Of a stretch of 64,000 nucleotides of DNA, positions 1 through 64,000 are shown piece after piece. The notes beneath the pieces are model-generated. The model was not told the DNA's origin. It ran no database searches and worked only from the letters and a program-made list of their open reading frames with translations. Position 1 is the stretch's first letter; the number at the start of each line of letters is the position of its first letter. A program made the position numbers and the translations under genes. Location: NCBI RefSeq assembly GCF_003991155.1, contig NZ_CP031293.1; one strand, 5' to 3'. This stretch comes from Escherichia coli. Its GTDB lineage: Bacteria > Pseudomonadota > Gammaproteobacteria > Enterobacterales > Enterobacteriaceae.

Positions 1-1265
1 TCGATGGTGACTTTTGCCGTTCCTGCGACCACTACCCAGTGTTCCGCGCGGTGATGGTGCATCTGTACCGACAAACCTTCGCCCGGTTTCACGGTGATGC
101 GTTTCACCTGATAGCGGTCGCCCGCGTCGATAGAGTCATATTTGCCCCACGGACGATACACTTCGCGATGCACCCGATGCTCATGGCGACCATCAGCTTT
201 GATCTGCTCGACCACTTTTTTCACATCCTGCACCGCATTACGGTCGGCAATCAGCACCGCATCTTTGGTCTGCACTACCACCAAATCTTTCACCCCGACG
301 GTGGTGACCAGGCCAGATTCGGCATACACATAGCTGTTTTCAGTTTTGTGATTAATCACATCGCCATGGCAAACGTTGCCCTCGGCGGTGTGGGCGCTGA
401 TCTCCCATAAAGAGGACCAGGAGCCGACATCGCTCCAGCCTGCATCCATCGGCACCACAACGGCATCTGCCGTGCGTTCCATGACCGCGTAATCCACCGA
501 CTCTTCCGGGCAGGCCAGAAACGCTTCTTCATCCACACGAATAAAATCGAGATCCGGATCGACGGCGCTCATCGCTTTTTCGCAGGCATCGAGAATATCC
601 GGGCGATATTTTTTCAGTTCTTCGAGATAGCGTCCGGCACGGAACAGGAACATACCGCTGTTCCAGTAATATTCGCCACTTGCCACATAGGCCTGGGCGG
701 TTTCCAGATTCGGTTTTTCGACAAACTGCGCCACTTCAAAGGCCACCGCATCCTGCTCACCCGCCGACACTTCACCGCGACGAATATAGCCATATCCGGT
801 TTCAGGTAGATCCGGCACAATGCCGAAGGTCACCAGCTTGCCCGCTTCGGCATACGGCATGGCATTACGCACGGCGGCACGGAACGCGTCTTCATCGGCA
901 ATCACATGATCCGCCGCCAGCACCAGCATTAATGGGTCGTTCTCCGGGCTATGACGTTTTGCCGCCAGCGCCGCCAGCGCAATGGCCGGTGCAGTGTTAC
1001 GCCCTGCCGGTTCGAGAATAATGTTCTCGGTGAGTTTGTTCAGTTGACGCAGCTGTTCCGCGACAATAAAGCGGTGCTGCTCATTGCAAATCACCACCGG
1101 GCTTTCGCACTCCACGCCGTTCAGGCGGCAGATGGTGGTTTGCAGCATGGTGAGATCGCCTTTCAGGCATAAAAACTGCTTGGGGTAAAGTACGCGGGAA
1201 AGCGGCCATAAGCGGCTACCGGAGCCACCTGCCATCACAACTGGATAGAGTTTCGACTGCGCCAT
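1..1265 (-). CDS. cpsB: mannose-1-phosphate guanylyltransferase (partial; 3' end beyond window start)
   Basis: Minus-strand ORF starting ATG at 1265 ([24 protein letters not shown]..., nucleotidyltransferase G-loop) runs off the window edge; not in ORF track because it has no stop in window. Confidence 0.85.
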
Positions 1266-20483: not shown

Positions 20484-23400
20484 ATGAGCAAACAATCACA
20501 GCATGTATTAATTGCCCTGCCCCACCCGCTGCTTCACCTGGTCAGTTTAGGTTTAGTCTCGTTTATCTTTACCCTTTTCTCGCTTGAGTTTTCGCAGTTT
20601 GGCACCCAACTCGCCCCACTGTGGTTCCCGACGTCCATCATGATGGTGGCGTTTTATCGCCATGCCGGGCGCATGTGGCCGGGGATTGCGCTGAGCTGCT
20701 CGCTGGGAAATATCGCCGCATCCATCCTGCTTTTTTCCACCAGCTCGCTGAACATGACCTGGACGACCATCAATATTGTTGAAGCCGTGGTCGGGGCAGT
20801 GCTACTGCGTAAATTGCTGCCGTGGTATAACCCATTGCAAAATCTGGCTGACTGGCTGCGTCTGGCACTCGGCAGCGCCATTGTTCCACCTCTGTTAGGG
20901 GGTGTTCTGGTTATCCTGCTGACGCCCGGAGACGATCCTCTCAGGGCATTTTTGATATGGGTACTGTCAGAATCCATCGGCGCACTGGCACTGGTGCCGC
21001 TGGGATTGTTATTTAAACCACACTATCTGCTGCGCCATCGCAACCCACGGTTGCTTTTTGAGTCGCTGCTCACGTTAGCCATCACACTGACGTTAAGCTG
21101 GCTTTCGATGCTGTATCTGCCGTGGCCTTTTACTTTCATTATTGTGCTGTTGATGTGGAGCGCCGTGCGCCTGCCACGAATGGAAGCCTTTTTGATCTTC
21201 CTTACCACGGTGATGATGGTGTCACTGATGATGGCCGCGGATCCCTCCCTGCTTGCTACGCCGCGTACATACCTGATGAGCCATATGCCGTGGCTACCGT
21301 TTTTGCTGATCCTGCTGCCCGCCAACATCATGACCATGGTGATGTATGCCTTTCGTGCGGAACGCAAACACATTTCCGAAAGCGAAACCCGTTTTCGTAA
21401 TGCCATGGAATATTCCGCCATCGGCATGGCATTAGTGGGCACCGAGGGACAATGGCTGCAATCCAACAAAGCGCTCTGCCAGTTTCTCGGTTACAGTCAG
21501 GAAGAACTGCGCGGACTCACCTTTCAGCAACTGACCTGGCCGGAGGATCTCAATAAAGATCTGCAACAGGTTGAAAAGCTGATCAGCGGTGAAATAAACA
21601 CCTATTCAATGGAAAAACGCTACTACAACCGCAATGGCGATGTTGTCTGGGCGTTGCTTGCCGTCTCACTGGTGCGCCACACGGATGGCACGCCGCTCTA
21701 TTTTATCGCTCAGATTGAAGACATTAACGAGCTAAAACGCACCGAACAGGTGAACAAGCAACTGATGGAGCGCATCACGCTGGCTAACGAAGCGGGCGGG
21801 ATTGGCATCTGGGAGTGGGAGCTAAAGCCGAATATTTTTAGCTGGGATAAGCGGATGTTCGAGCTGTATGAAATTCCTCCGCATATCAAACCGAACTGGC
21901 AGGTGTGGTACGAGTGCGTGCTGCCGGAAGATCGCCAGCACGCCGAAAAAGTGATTCGCGATTCATTGCAATCACGCTCGCCCTTTAAGCTGGAATTTCG
22001 CATTGCCGTGAAAGATGGCATCCGCCATATCCGCGCCCTCGCCAACCGGGTACTGAATAAAGAAGGCGAAGTCGAACGTCTGCTCGGCATTAATATGGAT
22101 ATGACCGAGGTTAAACAGCTTAACGAGGCATTGTTTCAGGAAAAAGAGCGCCTGCACATTACGCTGGATTCCATCGGTGAAGCCGTGGTCTGTATTGATA
22201 TGGCGATGAAAATTACCTTTATGAATCCGGTGGCGGAGAAGATGAGCGGCTGGACGCAGGAAGAAGCGTTAGGTGTTCCACTCCTGACGGTGTTGCATAT
22301 TACTTTTGGCGACAACGGACCATTAATGGAGAACATTTACAGTGCCGACACCTCACGTTCCGCGATTGAACAAGATGTGGTGTTGCACTGCCGAAGCGGC
22401 GGCAGCTACGACGTGCATTACAGTATTACGCCGTTAAGTACTCTGGACGGCAGCAATATAGGCTCGGTTCTGGTGATTCAGGACGTCACCGAATCGCGCA
22501 AAATGCTGCGCCAGCTGAGCTACAGCGCCTCCCATGATGCACTGACGCATCTCGCCAATCGCGCCAGTTTTGAGAAGCAACTGCGTATCCTGCTGCAAAC
22601 GGTAAACAGTACACATCAGCGACATGCACTGGTGTTTATCGATCTTGATCGCTTTAAAGCGGTGAATGACAGCGCCGGGCACGCCGCTGGCGACGCTTTA
22701 CTGCGCGAACTGGCGTCATTGATGCTGAGTATGCTGCGCTCCAGCGACGTGCTGGCGCGACTCGGTGGCGATGAATTTGGTCTGCTGCTGCCAGATTGTA
22801 ATGTCGAAAGTGCGCGTTTTATCGCTACACGCATTATCAGCGCCGTGAATGACTATCACTTTATCTGGGAAGGACGAGTACATCGGGTAGGTGCCAGTGC
22901 CGGGATTACCTTGATTGATGACAACAATCATCAGGCGGCTGAAGTGATGTCGCAGGCTGATATCGCCTGTTATGCCTCCAAAAATGGTGGCCGGGGCCGG
23001 GTGACGGTTTACGAACCGCAGCAAGCTGCCGCACATAGCGAACGGGCGGCGATATCGCTTGATGAACAGAGGCGGATGATTAAAGAGAATCAGTTGATGA
23101 TGATCGCCCACGGTGTCGCTTCGCCGCGGATCCCGCAAGCGCGTAATTTGTGGCTGATTTCACTTAAGCTCTGGAGTTGCGAAGGCGAGATTATTGATGA
23201 ACAAACATTTCGTCGTAGCTTCAGCGATCCGGCACTTAGCCATGCTCTTGACCGACGGGTATTCCACGATTTTTTCCAGCAGGCCGCAAAAGCGATTGCC
23301 AGTAAAGGCTTAAGCATCGCCCTCCCCCTTTCCGTTGCCGGTTTGAGTAGCGCCACGCTGGTGAATGAACTAATTGAGCAGCTGGAAAATAGCCCTCTAC

Positions 23401-42915: not shown

Positions 42916-43168
42916 TTACGATGCCGGGCGTGGGTTGTTGGCGTCCGGCTTTATATCAAAACAACTCTTAGTTATTGATAATTAAGATTAACCTCCGCCA
43001 TTAAAATAGTGGGCACTGACGAGCACTCGTTGTGCTTTCTTTGTTTACCATCCCATACTTATCTTCCTGAACATGTTCATATGCCAAAATATCTTCTAAT
43101 ACTTTCGTGACGCTATCCGGTTTATGAAATACACTGATGTAAGATTTTTACTTACAGGCGGGTGTAAA

Positions 43169-43420
43169 ATGGCCAGAACGATGACGGTTGATCTCGGCGA
43201 TGAGTTGCGTGAATTTATCGAGTCCTTAATTGAATCCGGCGACTATCGCACCCAAAGCGAAGTGATCCGTGAGTCGCTGCGCTTACTTCGAGAAAAGCAA
43301 GCAGAGTCTCGCCTGCAAGCGTTACGTGACATGCTCGCTGAAGGGTTGAGTAGTGGTGAAGCTCAGCCGTGGGAAAAGGACGCGTTTTTACGGAAGGTGA
43401 AAGCAGGGATAAGGAAATAA
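43169..43420 (+). CDS. ParD-like antitoxin (ribbon-helix-helix)
   Basis: MARTMTVDLGDELREFIESLIESGDYRTQSEVIRESLRLL... typical of ParD/COG3609-type antitoxins; the start is uncertain (alternative in-frame starts at 43124 and 43181). Confidence 0.65.
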   Translation: MARTMTVDLGDELREFIESLIESGDYRTQSEVIRESLRLLREKQAESRLQALRDMLAEGLSSGEAQPWEKDAFLRKVKAGIRK

Positions 43421-43421
43421 T

Positions 43422-43718
43422 GTGCGTACTATAAAACTCATGCCAAAAGCCAATGAGGATTTAGAAGGCATCTGGTATTACAGCTATCACCATTTCGGCG
43501 AACCACAAGCCGACAGATATGTGGAACATCTTTCAGACGTTCTCCAGATTCTGAGTAACAATAATATAGGTACGCCCAGACCTGAATTAGGCGAAGGTAT
43601 TTTTGTTCTTCCTTTTGAACGCCACGTAATTTATTTCCTGCAATCGCCAGAGGAAATTATCGTCATTCGTATCCTTAACCAAAACCAGGACGCCTCCAGA
43701 CATTTACACTGGAGCTAA
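43422..43718 (+). CDS. ParE-like toxin (RelE/ParE superfamily)
   Basis: GTG start 2 nt after antitoxin stop with aagga SD; N-terminal LMPKANEDLEGIWYY motif characteristic of ParE. Confidence 0.65.
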   Translation: MRTIKLMPKANEDLEGIWYYSYHHFGEPQADRYVEHLSDVLQILSNNNIGTPRPELGEGIFVLPFERHVIYFLQSPEEIIVIRILNQNQDASRHLHWS

Positions 43719-61491: not shown

Positions 61492-61640
61492 AGTTTGCTC
61501 CTGCCATAACGTGAAGAAGCAATGACCTGGTGGTCCGTGACTTCCCTACGCTGGCATTATCCAGATCAGGTGATACGGGTATTTCTCAGCCTTCACGCAG
61601 AAGGGCACCCCGAGTCGTTTGGTTGAATCTCTATATTTTG
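61492..61640 (-). promoter_or_regulatory. TPP (thi-box) riboswitch in thiM leader
   Basis: Minus-strand leader contains GGGGUGCCCUUCUGCGUGAAGGCUGAGAAAUACCCGUAUCACCUGAUCUGGAUAAUGCCAGCGUAGGGAAGUCACGG... with CUGAGA thi-box and SD-sequestering stem. Confidence 0.85.
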
Positions 61641-61837
61641 TGCCAGCTTAGGGGAAGTGGCTTGCAGATGCAAGCTCGCCTCCATTAATTGCTTCTTCTC
61701 TGTGTACCCCATTTTGTACCCCATATCAGAAATGAAAAAGAAACATTTAACATCTATCATTCAGATGATAAAAACTATTGATTATCTTAATTTGCTAATT
61801 TATATTATTTATCTAAATTTGATAGGTGAGATAAAAA

Positions 61838-62077
61838 ATGACAGAAACCCAGATCTACGAGAACATTAAGCAAGCCATTAGCAGCGCACCACGAAATAGC
61901 CAAACGATGGAAATGCACCTCCAGATGATCAAATATGCTGACCATCTGAAAAAGGTTACGGCAAAAGAGTTTTGTGAAGGTGTAGGACTTAAAGCCAGCT
62001 TTGGTACAGAGTTCAGCAAAATGAGAAATCTTACCGAGCGACTCAAAGCTGCTGGACTTGACACCACGAAGTTATAA
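61838..62077 (+). CDS. hypothetical small protein (possible HTH regulator) of island
   Basis: 79-aa ORF in AT-rich DNA with ggtgaga SD; no family recognised; divergent from the minus-strand island genes. Confidence 0.35.
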   Translation: MTETQIYENIKQAISSAPRNSQTMEMHLQMIKYADHLKKVTAKEFCEGVGLKASFGTEFSKMRNLTERLKAAGLDTTKL

Positions 62078-62242
62078 AAAACAAATCATCAATATATTAT
62101 TTTTGTTTTCCAGACTTACTTGCATATGTTTCTACGAGCATAAAAAACAACAACCACCACATAGCTATTACCATAATAATGTTTTCCTTTTATATTAAAC
62201 AGAGAAATAGAATTAGAGCGTGGAATAGATGAATTCTATTTT

Positions 62243-62488
62243 CTATAACTTCTTGAGGTTGAATGTAGAAAAAGACAGCTCTTTCATTTCAATAACACCG
62301 AAATTTGATAGCTGTTTCAGCCAGAATTTTAAACCTGACTCAGAGCAACCTGCTCGATGTAACACATCGCTATATTTTAGCGGTGTTGGCTTTCCTTTAT
62401 AGAGGTAAACAAGCGTTTCGTAGGTGTGTTTTCCGGTGTCGTTACACTGAATGCGGTCTACTTGATTTTTTACTAAATATTGGATCAT
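62243..62488 (-). CDS. hypothetical small protein (possible winged-helix) of island
   Basis: 81-aa ORF 11 nt downstream of the 239-aa gene on the same strand. Confidence 0.4.
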   Translation of the reverse strand: MIQYLVKNQVDRIQCNDTGKHTYETLVYLYKGKPTPLKYSDVLHRAGCSESGLKFWLKQLSNFGVIEMKELSFSTFNLKKL

Positions 62489-62499
62489 AGTCCTCCTTA

Positions 62500-63219
62500 T
62501 TAAAATGGAATGTCAAAATCGTCCTCTTCTGTCTCAGGTATCGTGTATATATGTTCTCTTCCTGTAAATTCAGAAACCACTATTGAAATTAGCCTGTATG
62601 CCTCTATTTTATCGCCCTGCGTTTCAGCTAAAGCCCACTCAAGGGCTGCTTCTGTTGGCTGTCCATTCGGTTTGCAAATAGTGACACCGCCCCAAGGAAG
62701 CTCTGTTTTTTCCTGCTGAATAGAGCGTGTTGTTTCTAGTGTTTTTTTATCTTCCGTAGGGGGAAGCTGTTCAGGAACAGCTTTAACAGTAGATACTTGC
62801 TCTGTCTGTGGCTTTTCTGCATTTACAGAGGCTTTCGCTTCTCTTGGTGCTGTAATATGTGCATCTGTAAAGGGTAATGCTTTATAGAGTGATGTTTGAC
62901 CGTGGCGTGCCTCTACAGAAAGAACTCCCATATCAACAAACATATTTATAATATTGCGTACCTGACGATCACTAACCATTCCAATATTAGCTAATGTTTT
63001 TTGAGTAGCGTAACATTCTTGCCCTTGTTCATTGAATCCAGCTATATAGCTATAGATTTCAACGGCTGGCAGTGTAGCGGTGTATTCATTACCAGATGGT
63101 GAGTACCATTTTTTAAACATCTTCAACCATTGCTCAACAACTACATATTTTTGTTTACCATCTTTCTGATTTAGACATTTGGCTTTCGCTTCGGCAATTG
63201 TTTTGATATTTTTGATCAT
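62500..63219 (-). CDS. phage/island protein with wHTH-like N-domain and SSB-like acidic C-terminal tail (DDFDIPF)
   Basis: 239-aa ORF with perfect AGGAGG SD 5 nt upstream of ATG; low-complexity PQTEQ linker; final residues EEDDFDIPF resemble the SSB C-terminal tip. Confidence 0.6.
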   Translation of the reverse strand: MIKNIKTIAEAKAKCLNQKDGKQKYVVVEQWLKMFKKWYSPSGNEYTATLPAVEIYSYIAGFNEQGQECYATQKTLANIGMVSDRQVRNIINMFVDMGVLSVEARHGQTSLYKALPFTDAHITAPREAKASVNAEKPQTEQVSTVKAVPEQLPPTEDKKTLETTRSIQQEKTELPWGGVTICKPNGQPTEAALEWALAETQGDKIEAYRLISIVVSEFTGREHIYTIPETEEDDFDIPF

Positions 63220-63343
63220 TTAGTTCCTCCTTTGTAAGGACTGTAATTAGTAGTTCATTAACAAGTTTTGGAATTGATTTCCCTTCTGCCTTTGCGCGAT
63301 TTAACAACGCGTTATAAGTTGCAGAGTCAAAATTAATATTCAT
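63155..63343 (-). CDS. ribbon-helix-helix (CopG/Arc-like) small regulator
   Basis: ATG at 63343 with aggagaggaga SD; MNINFDSATYNALLNRAKAEGKSIPKLVNELL fits RHH beta-strand plus helices; 3' end overlaps the next gene by 65 nt, so the true stop/frame is uncertain. Confidence 0.45.
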   Translation of the reverse strand: MNINFDSATYNALLNRAKAEGKSIPKLVNELLITVLTKEELNDQKYQNNCRSESQMSKSERW

Positions 63344-63365
63344 TTGGTTTTCTCCTCTCCTGTTA

Positions 63366-63548
63366 TTATTCTTTCTCTGCTTCTGCCTTACGCAGTTCAT
63401 CAATAATCTTGAGTGCATCGTCAAAGCATTTTTCACGCTCTGGATAACCTCGACTCCTTGCCATATTACGATTCATTACTACTTGATGTCGTGTTAACTC
63501 ACCTTTTTTAAATGCCTCTACGACGTGTTCCGGTATAAACCATTTCAT
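63366..63548 (-). CDS. hypothetical small basic protein of island
   Basis: 60-aa ORF MKWFIPEHVVEAFKKGELTRHQ... directly upstream of the RHH gene on the same strand. Confidence 0.35.
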   Translation of the reverse strand: MKWFIPEHVVEAFKKGELTRHQVVMNRNMARSRGYPEREKCFDDALKIIDELRKAEAEKE

Positions 63549-64000
63549 AAAAAACTCCTTATTCAGTTAAAAGAAAAACACCTTGCAAGCCTGACGGCTT
63601 CAAAGTGCATTGATTTTGATTATTTAGAGAAGAATGTTTTTCTGTCCCTCTAGTACCTATTATTACATATAAATAAACATTTGTCAATATCTTTTCATAA
63701 AAAATCAGAACCTTTTCATGCACTTACATTTTTTCTTAGCGATTCGTGCTCTCCTGTGTAGTGCTATTCTTCATTACCAGCTAAAACGCTCTAAAACGCG
63801 TTCTAACGAAGTTTTGATAAAAGCAATACATTCTCTTATGTAATGGCTGTTTAGCTCGCCAGAGGCTTATTTAAGTGGCTTATTTTGTATTTGTTAGATG
63901 ATGATAGATATAAAACAGAGAGTTCTTAGATTAGTTACTTTATAAAACGCTCTGTAAAGCCCTGTAGTGAGTTTATATATGTAGGCAAAGCGGTTTCCAT

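Follow-up and report, generated by a model that had tools for sequence, protein, structure and literature searches.

Replication initiators of the RepA_N and pPR9 type, to which pSK41 RepA and the RepA of the Vibrio satellite PLE belong, are built from an N-terminal winged helix, a linker and a C-terminal effector part, and the RepA_N-type proteins combine a dispensable linker and a host-specific C-terminal domain with swapping of N- and C-terminal modules. In pSK41 RepA, the N-terminal domain binds DNA and the C-terminal domain binds the DnaG primase, with the linker between them being dispensable, while pPR9 Rep carries a swapped-in N-terminal domain of the PF13730 (HTH_36) family and still replicates (PMC5703833). 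PLE replicates from a long non-coding region without a helicase or primase of its own, and how its RepA brings in the replication machinery is stated as unknown (PMC7145576). The helper side of that conflict is also documented, in that the nuclease Odn of phage ICP1 copies the PLE RepA N-domain and cuts the PLE origin (PMC8263062). Precedents for a short linear motif by which a replication protein engages a hub of the replisome are T7 gp4 and RK2 TrfA. In T7, the helicase-primase gp4 and the SSB gp2.5 have in common an acidic tail ending in Phe, i.e. a tail of the SSB type is found on a protein that is not an SSB, as in the case described here. TrfA carries the beta-clamp motif QLSLF (PMC8034659). 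In SSB itself, a disordered linker connects the folded DNA-binding domain to an acidic tip (PMC11253446), which in E. coli ends in the SSB-Ct hexapeptide DDDIPF (PMC5872125).

The protein in question, of 239 aa, is encoded in a window of 64,000 nt (the whole stretch of DNA analyzed) from Escherichia coli contig NZ_CP031293.1. It shares with the RepA_N/pPR9-type initiators the order of N-terminal winged helix, linker and C-terminal effector part, as well as the swapping of modules within its family, and as for PLE no helicase or primase of the element's own was recognized. It differs from them in that the N-terminal domain is of the HTH_36 family, the C-terminal domain is much smaller (~50 aa) and unrelated, and the protein ends in an SSB-Ct-like tip, a feature not mentioned in the literature covered for these initiators. 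With E. coli Ssb it has in common a disordered linker followed by an acidic tip ending in D-I-P-F-COOH, which both proteins could present on DNA. Ssb, however, has an OB fold, whereas the 239-aa protein has a winged helix, presumably specific for duplex DNA and for sequence, and a small folded domain between linker and tip. The motifs and partners of TrfA and T7 gp4 are different ones, and neither of these is an origin-binding initiator with a bacterial SSB-Ct. We propose, at a probability of somewhat less than one half (about 0.45), that the 239-aa protein binds the origin of a satellite-like element as its replication initiator and that the tip of the protein mimics SSB-Ct in order to recruit SSB partners; as such it would probably be the replication starter of its island. 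This reading is supported by the conservation of the tip, the SSB-like layout, the initiator affinities of the N-domain, the RepA/pPR9 precedent, the genomic context and an arms-race signature in a lytic phage.

The gene, with its ATG and a strong ribosome-binding site (AAGGAGG, 6 nt upstream), is present in the sequence exactly as the sequence-only reading had described it, and its assignment to an island holds as well: it lies in an insert of ~7.65 kb between perfect 82-bp direct repeats inside the thiM TPP-riboswitch leader (Table 1). A tyrosine integrase is found at the far end of the island, outside the window, and an Rfam scan of the island returned two copies of the TPP riboswitch and nothing else. 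Besides the integrase, the island comprises a type IV restriction endonuclease gene, a control-protein-like HTH gene, a serine recombinase gene and the small operon that includes the gene under study. By querying complete E. coli genomes with window positions 61500-64000, which take in no more than the ~2.4 kb of the island next to thiM, we found matches over at least 80% of the query in 77 out of 5426. Within the early operon, the 63-aa ORF, which is RHH-like by our own reading, is conserved in islands with the type A N-domain, while those of types B and D have another small RHH-like ORF instead. The 81-aa downstream protein is C-terminally truncated relative to a 92-aa version in larger islands, and homology to these 12-kb islands stops shortly past its gene. 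Next to the operon are a long, conserved region without ORFs and the gene of a small recombinase (serine or tyrosine), an arrangement that is plasmid-like. The ORF-free region is 90-95% identical between islands, lacks any Rfam match, and contains no ORF of at least 50 aa in its central ~1.2 kb (positions 22225-23382 of locus L001). It is a candidate for a region acting in cis (ori, res or pac).

Relatives of the gene were located in satellite-like, capsid-encoding islands of ~12 kb and in one circular episome of 13 kb. The episome, closed at 13.2 kb and devoid of an integrase, carries a homologue of 34% identity in the same gene order; this is its only rep-like gene, and the satellite-like islands, too, have no rep-like gene other than the one of this type. 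Neither the window island, its ~12-kb relatives nor the episome has a recognizable helicase or primase gene. The phage-type genes recognized in the larger relatives are limited to a major capsid protein, a tape-measure-like protein and a Dit-like protein, and when the window island and the larger relatives were checked against P4-like satellites, PICI, cfPICI and PLE, none of the hallmark genes were recognized (P4 alpha, sid and psu; PICI alpA plus pri-rep; a full cfPICI head module; PLE genes). This capsid-encoding island family is apparently undescribed so far.

Table 1. Positions of the 239-aa protein gene, its encoded domains and the neighboring features in the window.
Feature	Position	Strand	Remarks
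Left copy of the perfect 82-bp direct repeat (att)	61544..61625		Within the thiM TPP riboswitch; marks the end of the island closest to the gene
81-aa gene, small predicted wHTH	62243..62488	-	Downstream; preceded by an AAGGAGG that shares bases with the stop codon of the 239-aa gene
Gene for the 239-aa protein	62500..63219	-	ATG start; stop codon 62500-62502; RefSeq WP_000594464.1, "hypothetical protein"
Acidic tail, codons 227-239	62503..62541	-	TIPETEEDDFDIPF-COOH; SSB-Ct-like tip
Small two-helix C-terminal domain, class C2, codons 173-226	62542..62703	-	Motif ELPWGG...NG...WAL.ET.GD...AY.LIS
Disordered low-complexity linker, codons 129-172	62704..62835	-	AF2 pLDDT <50 for 130-153 and 155-171
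N-terminal winged-helix DNA-binding domain (HTH_36), codons 1-128	62836..63219	-	Ends at conserved hinge LPFTDAHI, aa 115-122
261-nt stretch (aa ~33-118)	62864..63124	-	98.9% DNA identity to gene 154 of lytic phage muut (blastn, locus L010 5006-5266)
Unannotated 63-aa ORF (MNINFDSATYNALLNRAKAEGKSIPKLVNELL...)	63155..63346	-	phrog_36888, E 1.9e-4; extends over the initial 65 nt of the 239-aa gene
60-aa gene, first of the operon	63366..63548	-	Conserved in all related islands
Start of the ~1.77-kb ORF-free AT-rich region	63549..64000		Continues outside the window as far as the gene of a small serine recombinase
Candidate sigma-70-type promoter of the operon	63659..63687	-	TTGACA-17-AATAAT, 11/12 matches, TG extended -10; match to consensus only

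The wHTH-like N-terminus and the low-complexity linker that had been read from the letters are both borne out, the former by a Pfam match to HTH_36 (PF13730; aa 55-98, E 3.3e-5) and by the AF2 model, in which aa ~30-125 form a winged helix at a pLDDT of ~90, and the latter by a pLDDT below 50 for aa 130-171. The linker is also the recombination junction between the N and C modules of the family. A small folded domain before the tail, which had been absent from the sequence-only reading, is modeled at aa ~175-225 with a pLDDT of ~80 (76-86) and helices at 190-199 and 204-219; 14 of its positions are invariant in an alignment of six sequences (A2). Searches of the PDB with the profiles of both C-domains yielded no significant relatives, nor did sequence searches with the full protein or with the tail peptide, and the 239-aa protein had no match in NCBIfam or PADLOC, or to the Pfam SSB model for the OB-fold ssDNA-binding domain. 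In the family as a whole, which is confined to Enterobacterales, N-domain types A-D pair freely with C-domain classes C1-C3 in mosaic combinations. Class C2 is unrelated to C1 and C3 by profile comparison (hhalign probability 0.9%), while C1 and C3 seem, by eye, to be distant relatives that have an E-[ST]-F-x-x-F-x-x-R helix in common.

The affinities of the N-domain lie mostly with replication initiators. Its fold resembles the N-terminal domains of RepA and DnaD, and the best structural match of the 239-aa protein is the N-domain of PLE RepA. Matches to PHROGs and viral folds are likewise mostly initiators (phrog_270, 186, 345, 8102, 8540, 391, 428 and 678, E 4e-7 to 7e-4). Out of 28 family members, 23 matched HTH_36 at E <=0.001 and one matched DnaD_N (E 0.028), while RepA_N (PF06970) matched neither the 239-aa protein nor any of the 28. 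An alternative that we regard as unlikely is that the protein is a transcription regulator and infection sensor, with the winged helix sitting on operators of the element and the tip serving as bait for helper-phage proteins that bind the host SSB-Ct, e.g. phage recombinases or replisome parts. By analogy with Stl of SaPI, infection would then switch the regulator. The Stl repressors of SaPIs are inactivated by phage proteins. In line with such a regulator, generic wHTH regulators are found among the other close structural matches, the gene belongs to an operon that encodes small DNA-binding proteins and has a strong candidate promoter, and some database records name homologues MarR-family regulators or "transcriptional regulator", which counts against the initiator reading; none of the 28 members, however, matched the MarR models of Pfam at E <=0.001, the nearest being one with MarR_2 (1.6e-3) and one with MarR (2.1e-2). 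The regulator also gains from repeat searches of the ORF-free region and of the small-ORF and N-domain cassette, in which no iterons were found. A block comparison of the islands indicated that this cassette is the only part to covary with N-domain type, and it contains no repeat family enriched over shuffles, a result that again counts against the initiator reading. ATTACAC sites are concentrated in the ORF-free region, with six out of the nine in 42.5 kb falling within 700 bp of it; they accompany N-domains of type A, B and D without distinction and are few in some islands of type A, so that they are probably not the specific sites of the N-domain. The ORF-free region is further flanked by a weak inverted repeat, as in a possible invertible switch; the apparent "inverted resolvase" in locus L004 is a different gene.

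The C-terminal end that would recruit SSB partners in the preferred reading of the protein as an initiator is ...IYTIPETEEDDFDIPF*, as given by the ORF list and the sequence. The resemblance to SSB that had been claimed for the final EEDDFDIPF is real, with DFDIPF being identical to the SSB-Ct DDDIPF at five out of six positions, and the tail is predicted to be disordered (AF2 pLDDT <50 at aa 231-235). The protein as modeled parallels SSB itself in architecture, with a disordered linker leading from a folded domain for DNA binding towards an acidic ...[IL]PF-COOH tip. Computed from amino-acid frequencies, an [IL]PF end after at least three acidic residues in six is expected by chance in ~6e-6 of proteins, or ~0.03 per E. 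coli proteome. It had been reasoned beforehand that homologues lacking the tail would speak against SSB mimicry; the opposite was seen, as nothing in this highly mosaic family is better conserved than the tip. A terminal F was found in 56 out of 60 distinct full-length homologues (all of them from Enterobacterales), with PF as the end of 51 and [ILV]PF as that of 48, and the terminal Phe is the sole invariant column of a 28-sequence alignment. Judging from the sequences, the tip is a selected short linear motif and not a product of chance, because it is kept on C-domains without mutual profile similarity, and the tail probably matters in the function of the protein, because almost all relatives have kept it. 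The episomal homologue, on the other hand, has no tip, so that not every relative needs it, which counts against the recruitment reading. A clamp-binding motif was excluded as a reading of the tail by inspection, there being no Q-L-x-L-F pattern, and a literature search found no non-SSB initiator bearing an SSB-Ct tip.

A tip unrelated to SSB partners, whose resemblance to SSB-Ct is convergent, strikes us as quite unlikely. The ...[IL]PF-COOH end would in that case bind a protein of the element or a phage (e.g. the co-translated neighbor of 81-92 aa), fold back as an autoinhibitor onto the basic winged helix or act as a stability signal. Convergence would suit the tight coupling of the downstream gene to the 239-aa gene and the variability of the tails upstream of PF, with ends such as IYDSIPF, KWGIPF, SAVPF and TPDPF, some of them only weakly acidic, unlike the canonical SSB-Ct. 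The downstream protein does not, however, covary with C-domain class, and the features that the tails retain (the terminal Phe, Pro at -2, Ile/Leu at -3 and acidic residues at -4 to -8) are those critical for recognition of SSB-Ct. A further argument against convergence is the restriction of the family to Enterobacterales, whose SSB ends in DDDIPF.

The arms-race signature comes from the lytic phage muut. Compared by tblastn, the 239-aa protein is 82% identical to a muut product over aa 30-140, and the near-identical DNA in island and phage (Table 1) indicates that the two have resided together. The muut product gp154 consists of two tandem HTH_36 N-domains (E 4e-7 and 5e-5), only one of which corresponds to the stretch of 98.9% DNA identity, fused to a GIY-YIG-type endonuclease domain, the latter recognized through matches of the C-terminus to phrog_681 "endonuclease" (2e-18), Pfam MUG113 (4.6e-4) and T5orf172 (0.11); the AF2 model of this part (pLDDT <50) gave no confirmation of a GIY-YIG fold. 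By analogy, gp154 may be an arms-race signature mirroring ICP1 Odn, in that both have a satellite-initiator DNA-binding domain fused to a T5orf172/GIY-YIG-type nuclease, a predicted one in gp154. The two differ in phage, host and domain family (HTH_36 instead of RepA_N), and gp154 has two DNA-binding modules in tandem. In ~109 of the 146 kb of muut there is neither an annotated SSB nor an ORF ending in xPF, and one 136-aa ORF ends in DDDSEF. Since the likely associated phages encode a primase/helicase and a polymerase of their own, the relevant partners of the tip may be phage proteins and not those of the host, a point that counts against the preferred reading. A literature search found no satellite of Justusliebigvirus.

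Phage satellites commonly interfere with their helper phages, and SSB-Ct pockets make use of the free carboxylate. An induced interference factor, which would flood the cell with SSB-Ct tips or carry them on a winged helix of phage origin to phage DNA and thereby damage helper-phage replication, through competition with SSB for its partners or through mis-targeted nucleases and helicases, would fit both an N-domain that could recognize phage DNA, its own DNA being near-identical to part of a lytic-phage gene, and the second, internal DDIPF-like motif in the linker of some homologues, which would raise tip valency, but it is the least probable of the explanations weighed here, since a pure decoy needs no sequence-specific DNA-binding domain exchanged as a cassette, the internal motifs have no free carboxylate, and the context and the family affinities of the gene speak for a part in replicating the element itself.

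Mimicry of SSB had been suggested beforehand as a means either to hijack or to titrate host factors, or else to bring the protein to ssDNA-bound complexes. Hijacking or recruiting is the option favored here over titration, because by its features the protein looks like an initiator that binds the origin of a satellite-like element, and recruitment to ssDNA-bound complexes found no specific support. According to the initiator reading, the protein would be built like those of the RepA_N or pPR9 type, with an N-terminal winged helix for reading the DNA, a disordered linker that can be dispensed with and an effector end at the C-terminus. Bound to DNA, it would display DFDIPF-COOH and thereby dock proteins that normally recognize SSB-Ct, candidates being the restart loaders PriA and PriC, the DnaG primase and the chi subunit of the Pol III clamp loader, so that primosome and replisome would be assembled at the origin of the element. 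A wider version, which we put forward tentatively, is that an enterobacterial satellite-like family has grafted the SSB tip onto an initiator that binds duplex DNA sequence-specifically, as its solution to recruiting a replisome, yielding a surrogate SSB, and that the N-domain is caught in an Odn-style arms race. The origin-bound initiator would then dock PriA/PriC, DnaG and chi, or the equivalents of these in a helper phage like phi92 or phAPEC8, and a replisome could be started without DnaA and without a helicase or primase encoded by the element. Its DNA-binding module, of which a phage nuclease would have acquired a copy, would meanwhile be locked in a race with that nuclease, and such a race would explain the rampant swapping of N-domains while the tip stays fixed.

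Recruitment by small initiators without helicase or primase activity is an open mechanism that would thereby become testable, through a conserved, transplantable tip of six residues with defined candidate partners. If the proposal is true, SSB-Ct would not be private to SSB but a motif for recruitment that is portable and open to borrowing by mobile elements. The capsid-encoding islands, together with the Odn-like phage gene, would likewise be a candidate for a tractable E. coli counterpart of the conflict between PLE and ICP1 in Vibrio.

The gene at 62500-63219 on the minus strand opens with ATG, 6 nt after an AAGGAGG, and encodes a protein of 239 codons ending in ...IYTIPETEEDDFDIPF. Coordinates, Shine-Dalgarno sequence and C-terminus are all as described in a sequence-only reading of this DNA. 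The sole Pfam domain is HTH_36 (aa 55-98, E 3.3e-5). Together with the winged helix in an AlphaFold2 model, built from a 28-sequence alignment and with a mean pLDDT of 74, this match bears out the winged helix-turn-helix (wHTH)-like N-terminus proposed in that reading. The likeness of the tail to the SSB C-terminal peptide (SSB-Ct) also holds, as the final hexapeptide, DFDIPF, agrees with that of E. coli SSB-Ct, DDDIPF, at all positions but one (PMC5872125).

From amino-acid frequencies, an [IL]PF end preceded by six residues of which three or more are acidic has a chance of ~6e-6 per protein, i.e. ~0.03 expected cases per E. coli proteome; the stronger argument for the tip is the comparative one. 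Homology searches gave 60 distinct full-length proteins, with E. coli, Klebsiella, Citrobacter, Cronobacter, Kluyvera and Buttiauxella as named sources, which the databases call 'hypothetical', 'HTH domain-containing' or 'MarR family'. Their N-terminal winged helices belong to at least four divergent types (A-D), followed by a conserved hinge, LP[FL]TDAH[IV], a variable linker and a C-terminal module, of which there are several kinds; the main N- and C-types occur in every one of the 3 x 3 pairings. Stripped of the tail, the C-modules form clusters unrelated by BLAST, and class C2, that of the 239-aa protein, does not resemble C1/C3 in profile comparison (hhalign probability 0.9%). Nevertheless, 56 of the 60 proteins end in F and 51 in PF, acidic residues are enriched at positions -4 to -8, and the single invariant column of the alignment is the terminal Phe. 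A family without the tail, named beforehand as the outcome that would refute a role for it, is clearly not what was seen (48/60 end in [ILV]PF). We take the tip to be a selected short linear motif, since it is kept despite recombining and mutually unrelated C-modules. In several homologues (P0024, P0033, P0040, P0041, P0043 and P0079-P0081) the linker itself contains another SSB-tip-like motif, [FWY]DD[IL]P[FC]xWD, e.g. PDLDDIPFAWDEPE; P0008-type proteins contain DDDWDTPLPWETEE. The 239-aa protein is without this internal motif.

PHROG matches at aa ~50-165 are nearly all replication initiators, lambda-O-like proteins and DnaD-like loaders (E 4e-7 to 7e-4). Foldseek matches among viral models are mostly 'helix-turn-helix' or uncharacterized, and those with function-bearing names are mostly 'replication protein' or 'replication initiator'. 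The best structural match, 4RO3, comes from RepA, a RepA_N-family protein that serves the Vibrio cholerae phage satellite PLE as initiator, and represents its N-terminal domain (PMC7145576). RepA of pSK41 contacts DNA through its N-terminal domain (NTD) and can do without its central linker, and its host-specific C-terminal domain (CTD) binds DnaG primase; pPR9 has a phage-type PF13730 (HTH_36) domain in place of the RepA_N NTD and retains replication (PMC5703833). This NTD-linker-CTD description fits the anatomy of the 239-aa protein. As Pfam RepA_N does not match the protein, we file it as an HTH_36-type initiator that would work like a RepA_N protein, and by its affinities it is probably an initiator. 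A winged-helix fold by itself does not separate initiators from regulators, and a regulator or infection sensor with the tip as bait is the best-placed alternative, if an improbable one.

Features of the 239-aa protein, its island and related islands (L001 extends the island past the window end)
Feature	Position	Strand	Remarks
Winged helix	aa ~30-125		AlphaFold2, confident
Disordered stretch	aa 130-171		AlphaFold2
Small two-helix domain	aa ~175-225		AlphaFold2, pLDDT ~80
Disordered tail	C-terminal end		AlphaFold2
81-aa small wHTH gene	62243-62488		Translationally coupled, directly after the 239-aa gene
63-aa RHH-like ORF (MNINFDS...), unannotated	63155-63346	-	Own ribosome-binding site GGAGAGGAG
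Sigma-70-like promoter	63659-63687		Candidate, heads the operon
ORF-free AT-rich region, ~1.77 kb	63549-64000, on to L001 23813
Small serine recombinase	Island, beyond window end
XRE/control-protein-like HTH gene	Island, L001 24532-26257 stretch		6.6e-17
HNH type IV methyl-directed restriction enzyme	L001 24532-26257 stretch		PADLOC mREase_IV 1.3e-23
Tyrosine integrase	Island, beyond window end
~12-kb integrase islands	L002-L009, L011-L012		E. coli, Cronobacter and Klebsiella chromosomes; thrW/proA and other sites

The window covers E. coli chromosome from baeSR to thiMD; a RefSeq ParD/ParE-type toxin-antitoxin pair lies between yegP and yegQ (~43124-43718). The 239-aa gene sits in a ~7.65-kb insert in the thiM leader. 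The TPP riboswitch is duplicated at the ends of the insert, and the two copies share a perfect 82-bp direct repeat. At least 80% of the query 61500-64000, which includes the in-window part of the insert, is matched in 77 of 5426 complete E. coli genomes; the larger share of the insert lies past the window end. The island also bears a defence gene, as indicated by the mREase_IV restriction enzyme beside the control-protein-like HTH gene. From the promoter, the operon runs through a 60-aa gene, the RHH-like ORF and the 239-aa gene, third in order, to the 81-aa gene. The RHH-like ORF shares 65 nt with the start of the 239-aa gene, read in a different frame, and the two, ORF and N-domain, are swapped as one in type B and D islands. 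In larger islands the 81-aa gene has a 92-aa counterpart, of which it is a version shortened at the C-terminus; homology to those islands ends just past it. A convergent 79-aa gene (61838-62077) matches phrog_30666 (1e-56) and has no tblastn match in the phage collection.

The ORF-free region is 90-95% conserved among islands, contains a low-complexity AAGTAAGATAAG tract and clustered ATTACAC-type repeats (of the 9 sites in 42.5 kb, the cluster has 6), and is bordered on its far side by a small Ser or Tyr recombinase in every case. An Rfam scan of it gave no match; its possible contents are the origin, a res or pac site, or an invertible switch. No N-domain binding sites were found, and the repeats do not follow N-domain type. 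The sole DNA that does is the cassette of RHH-like ORF and N-domain, in which repeat enrichment was looked for and not found.

The module of small recombinase, long ORF-free region, 60-aa gene, RHH-like ORF, wHTH-tip protein and 81-92-aa protein recurs in ~12-kb islands at thrW and elsewhere, with DNA that is 85-95% identical. Beyond it, these have genes for a PF03864 major capsid protein, which shares only ~25% identity with capsids from Pseudomonas myophages, for a tape-measure-like product of 610 aa, and for a Dit-like protein and a DUF6538 integrase. In Cronobacter/Klebsiella-type islands and another thiM-site island, a ~190-aa tyrosine recombinase replaces the serine one. P4, PICI, cfPICI and PLE hallmark genes are absent from the ~12-kb islands, which appear to be an undescribed satellite-like family. 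No helicase or primase is recognisable in these or the thiM island, the leftover ORFs being too small. A different island occupies the same thiM-leader site in an Enterobacterales-like metagenome contig (L013, 221-10669), with a wHTH homologue ending in PDPF as last gene, adjoining thiM, and two ParB/RepB-like genes and a large serine recombinase as cargo. Furthermore, CP148565.1, a closed circular 'plasmid' of 13,238 bp, looks like an episomal member of the family: it has the gene order of the islands, genes for capsid, tape measure and baseplate and an ORF-free region of 2.3 kb, and is without integrase. The product of its only rep-like gene is a 298-aa homologue with 34% identity in the N-domain; this protein matches replication-initiator PHROGs and has a larger C-domain and no PF tip.

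An initiator without enzymatic domains, on an element without helicase or primase, would need means to recruit them. In SSB, an OB fold is followed by a disordered linker and a tip of 9 residues, which contacts many partners, including chi and DnaG (PMC11253446); SSB also binds PriA and stimulates it (PMC5531588). The DNA-bound 239-aa protein would display its SSB-like tip and dock at least one SSB-Ct reader at the origin: PriA or PriC would lead to DnaB loading, DnaG to priming, and chi would bring in the clamp loader. Whereas the pSK41 CTD contacts DnaG directly, the 239-aa protein would reach the same by mimicry. The analysis shows the domain anatomy, the conservation of the tip, the affinities of the family and the genomic setting, from which the role as initiator, the place of the origin, the docking of the tip and the choice of partner are inferred. 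It is rather likely that the tip engages SSB-Ct pockets; for an initiator that also does so, we put the probability at roughly 0.45. That a selected tip so close to SSB-Ct serves an unrelated partner or autoinhibition is unlikely, and that a protein with initiator-type relatives is an interference or titration factor is more doubtful still. The literature searched reports neither a non-SSB initiator with an SSB-Ct-type tip nor satellites of Justusliebigvirus phages, which, full-text coverage being incomplete, is absence of evidence only. Within that literature, the protein is an NTD-linker-CTD putative initiator with a hitherto undescribed candidate recruitment device.

Matches in the phage collection were confined to six records, representing four lytic phages of ~146-151 kb (muut, inny, BI-EHEC and Mt1B1_P17), of which muut is classified as Justusliebigvirus. 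Phages of this type encode their own primase/helicase and polymerase, and no SSB is annotated in the ~109 kb of muut examined, so the tip could have its partners among phage proteins able to read host SSB. Gene 154 of muut (MN850573; L010 4404-5633) shares 98.9% DNA identity with window 62864-63124 over 261 nt, and the adjacent 612 nt match a type-D island at 86%. In the gene product, gp154, the shared linker joins a type-D winged helix to a type-A winged helix, and a C-terminus of ~125 aa follows; in the sister phages the first winged helix is different. The C-terminus matches phrog_681 'endonuclease' (2e-18), Pfam MUG113 (4.6e-4), which we take to be a GIY-YIG clan member, and weakly T5orf172 (0.11). 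T5orf172 belongs to the same clan, and the ICP1 nuclease Odn combines it with an N-domain copied from PLE RepA and cleaves the PLE origin at the iterons; PLEs escape by exchange of replication modules (PMC8263062). With initiator-type DNA-binding domains and a predicted nuclease, gp154 has the architecture of Odn. By this analogy alone, it supports the notions that the N-domain has its target in a cis site vital to the islands, that the islands interact with muut-type phages, and that phage conflict may drive the swapping of N-domains.
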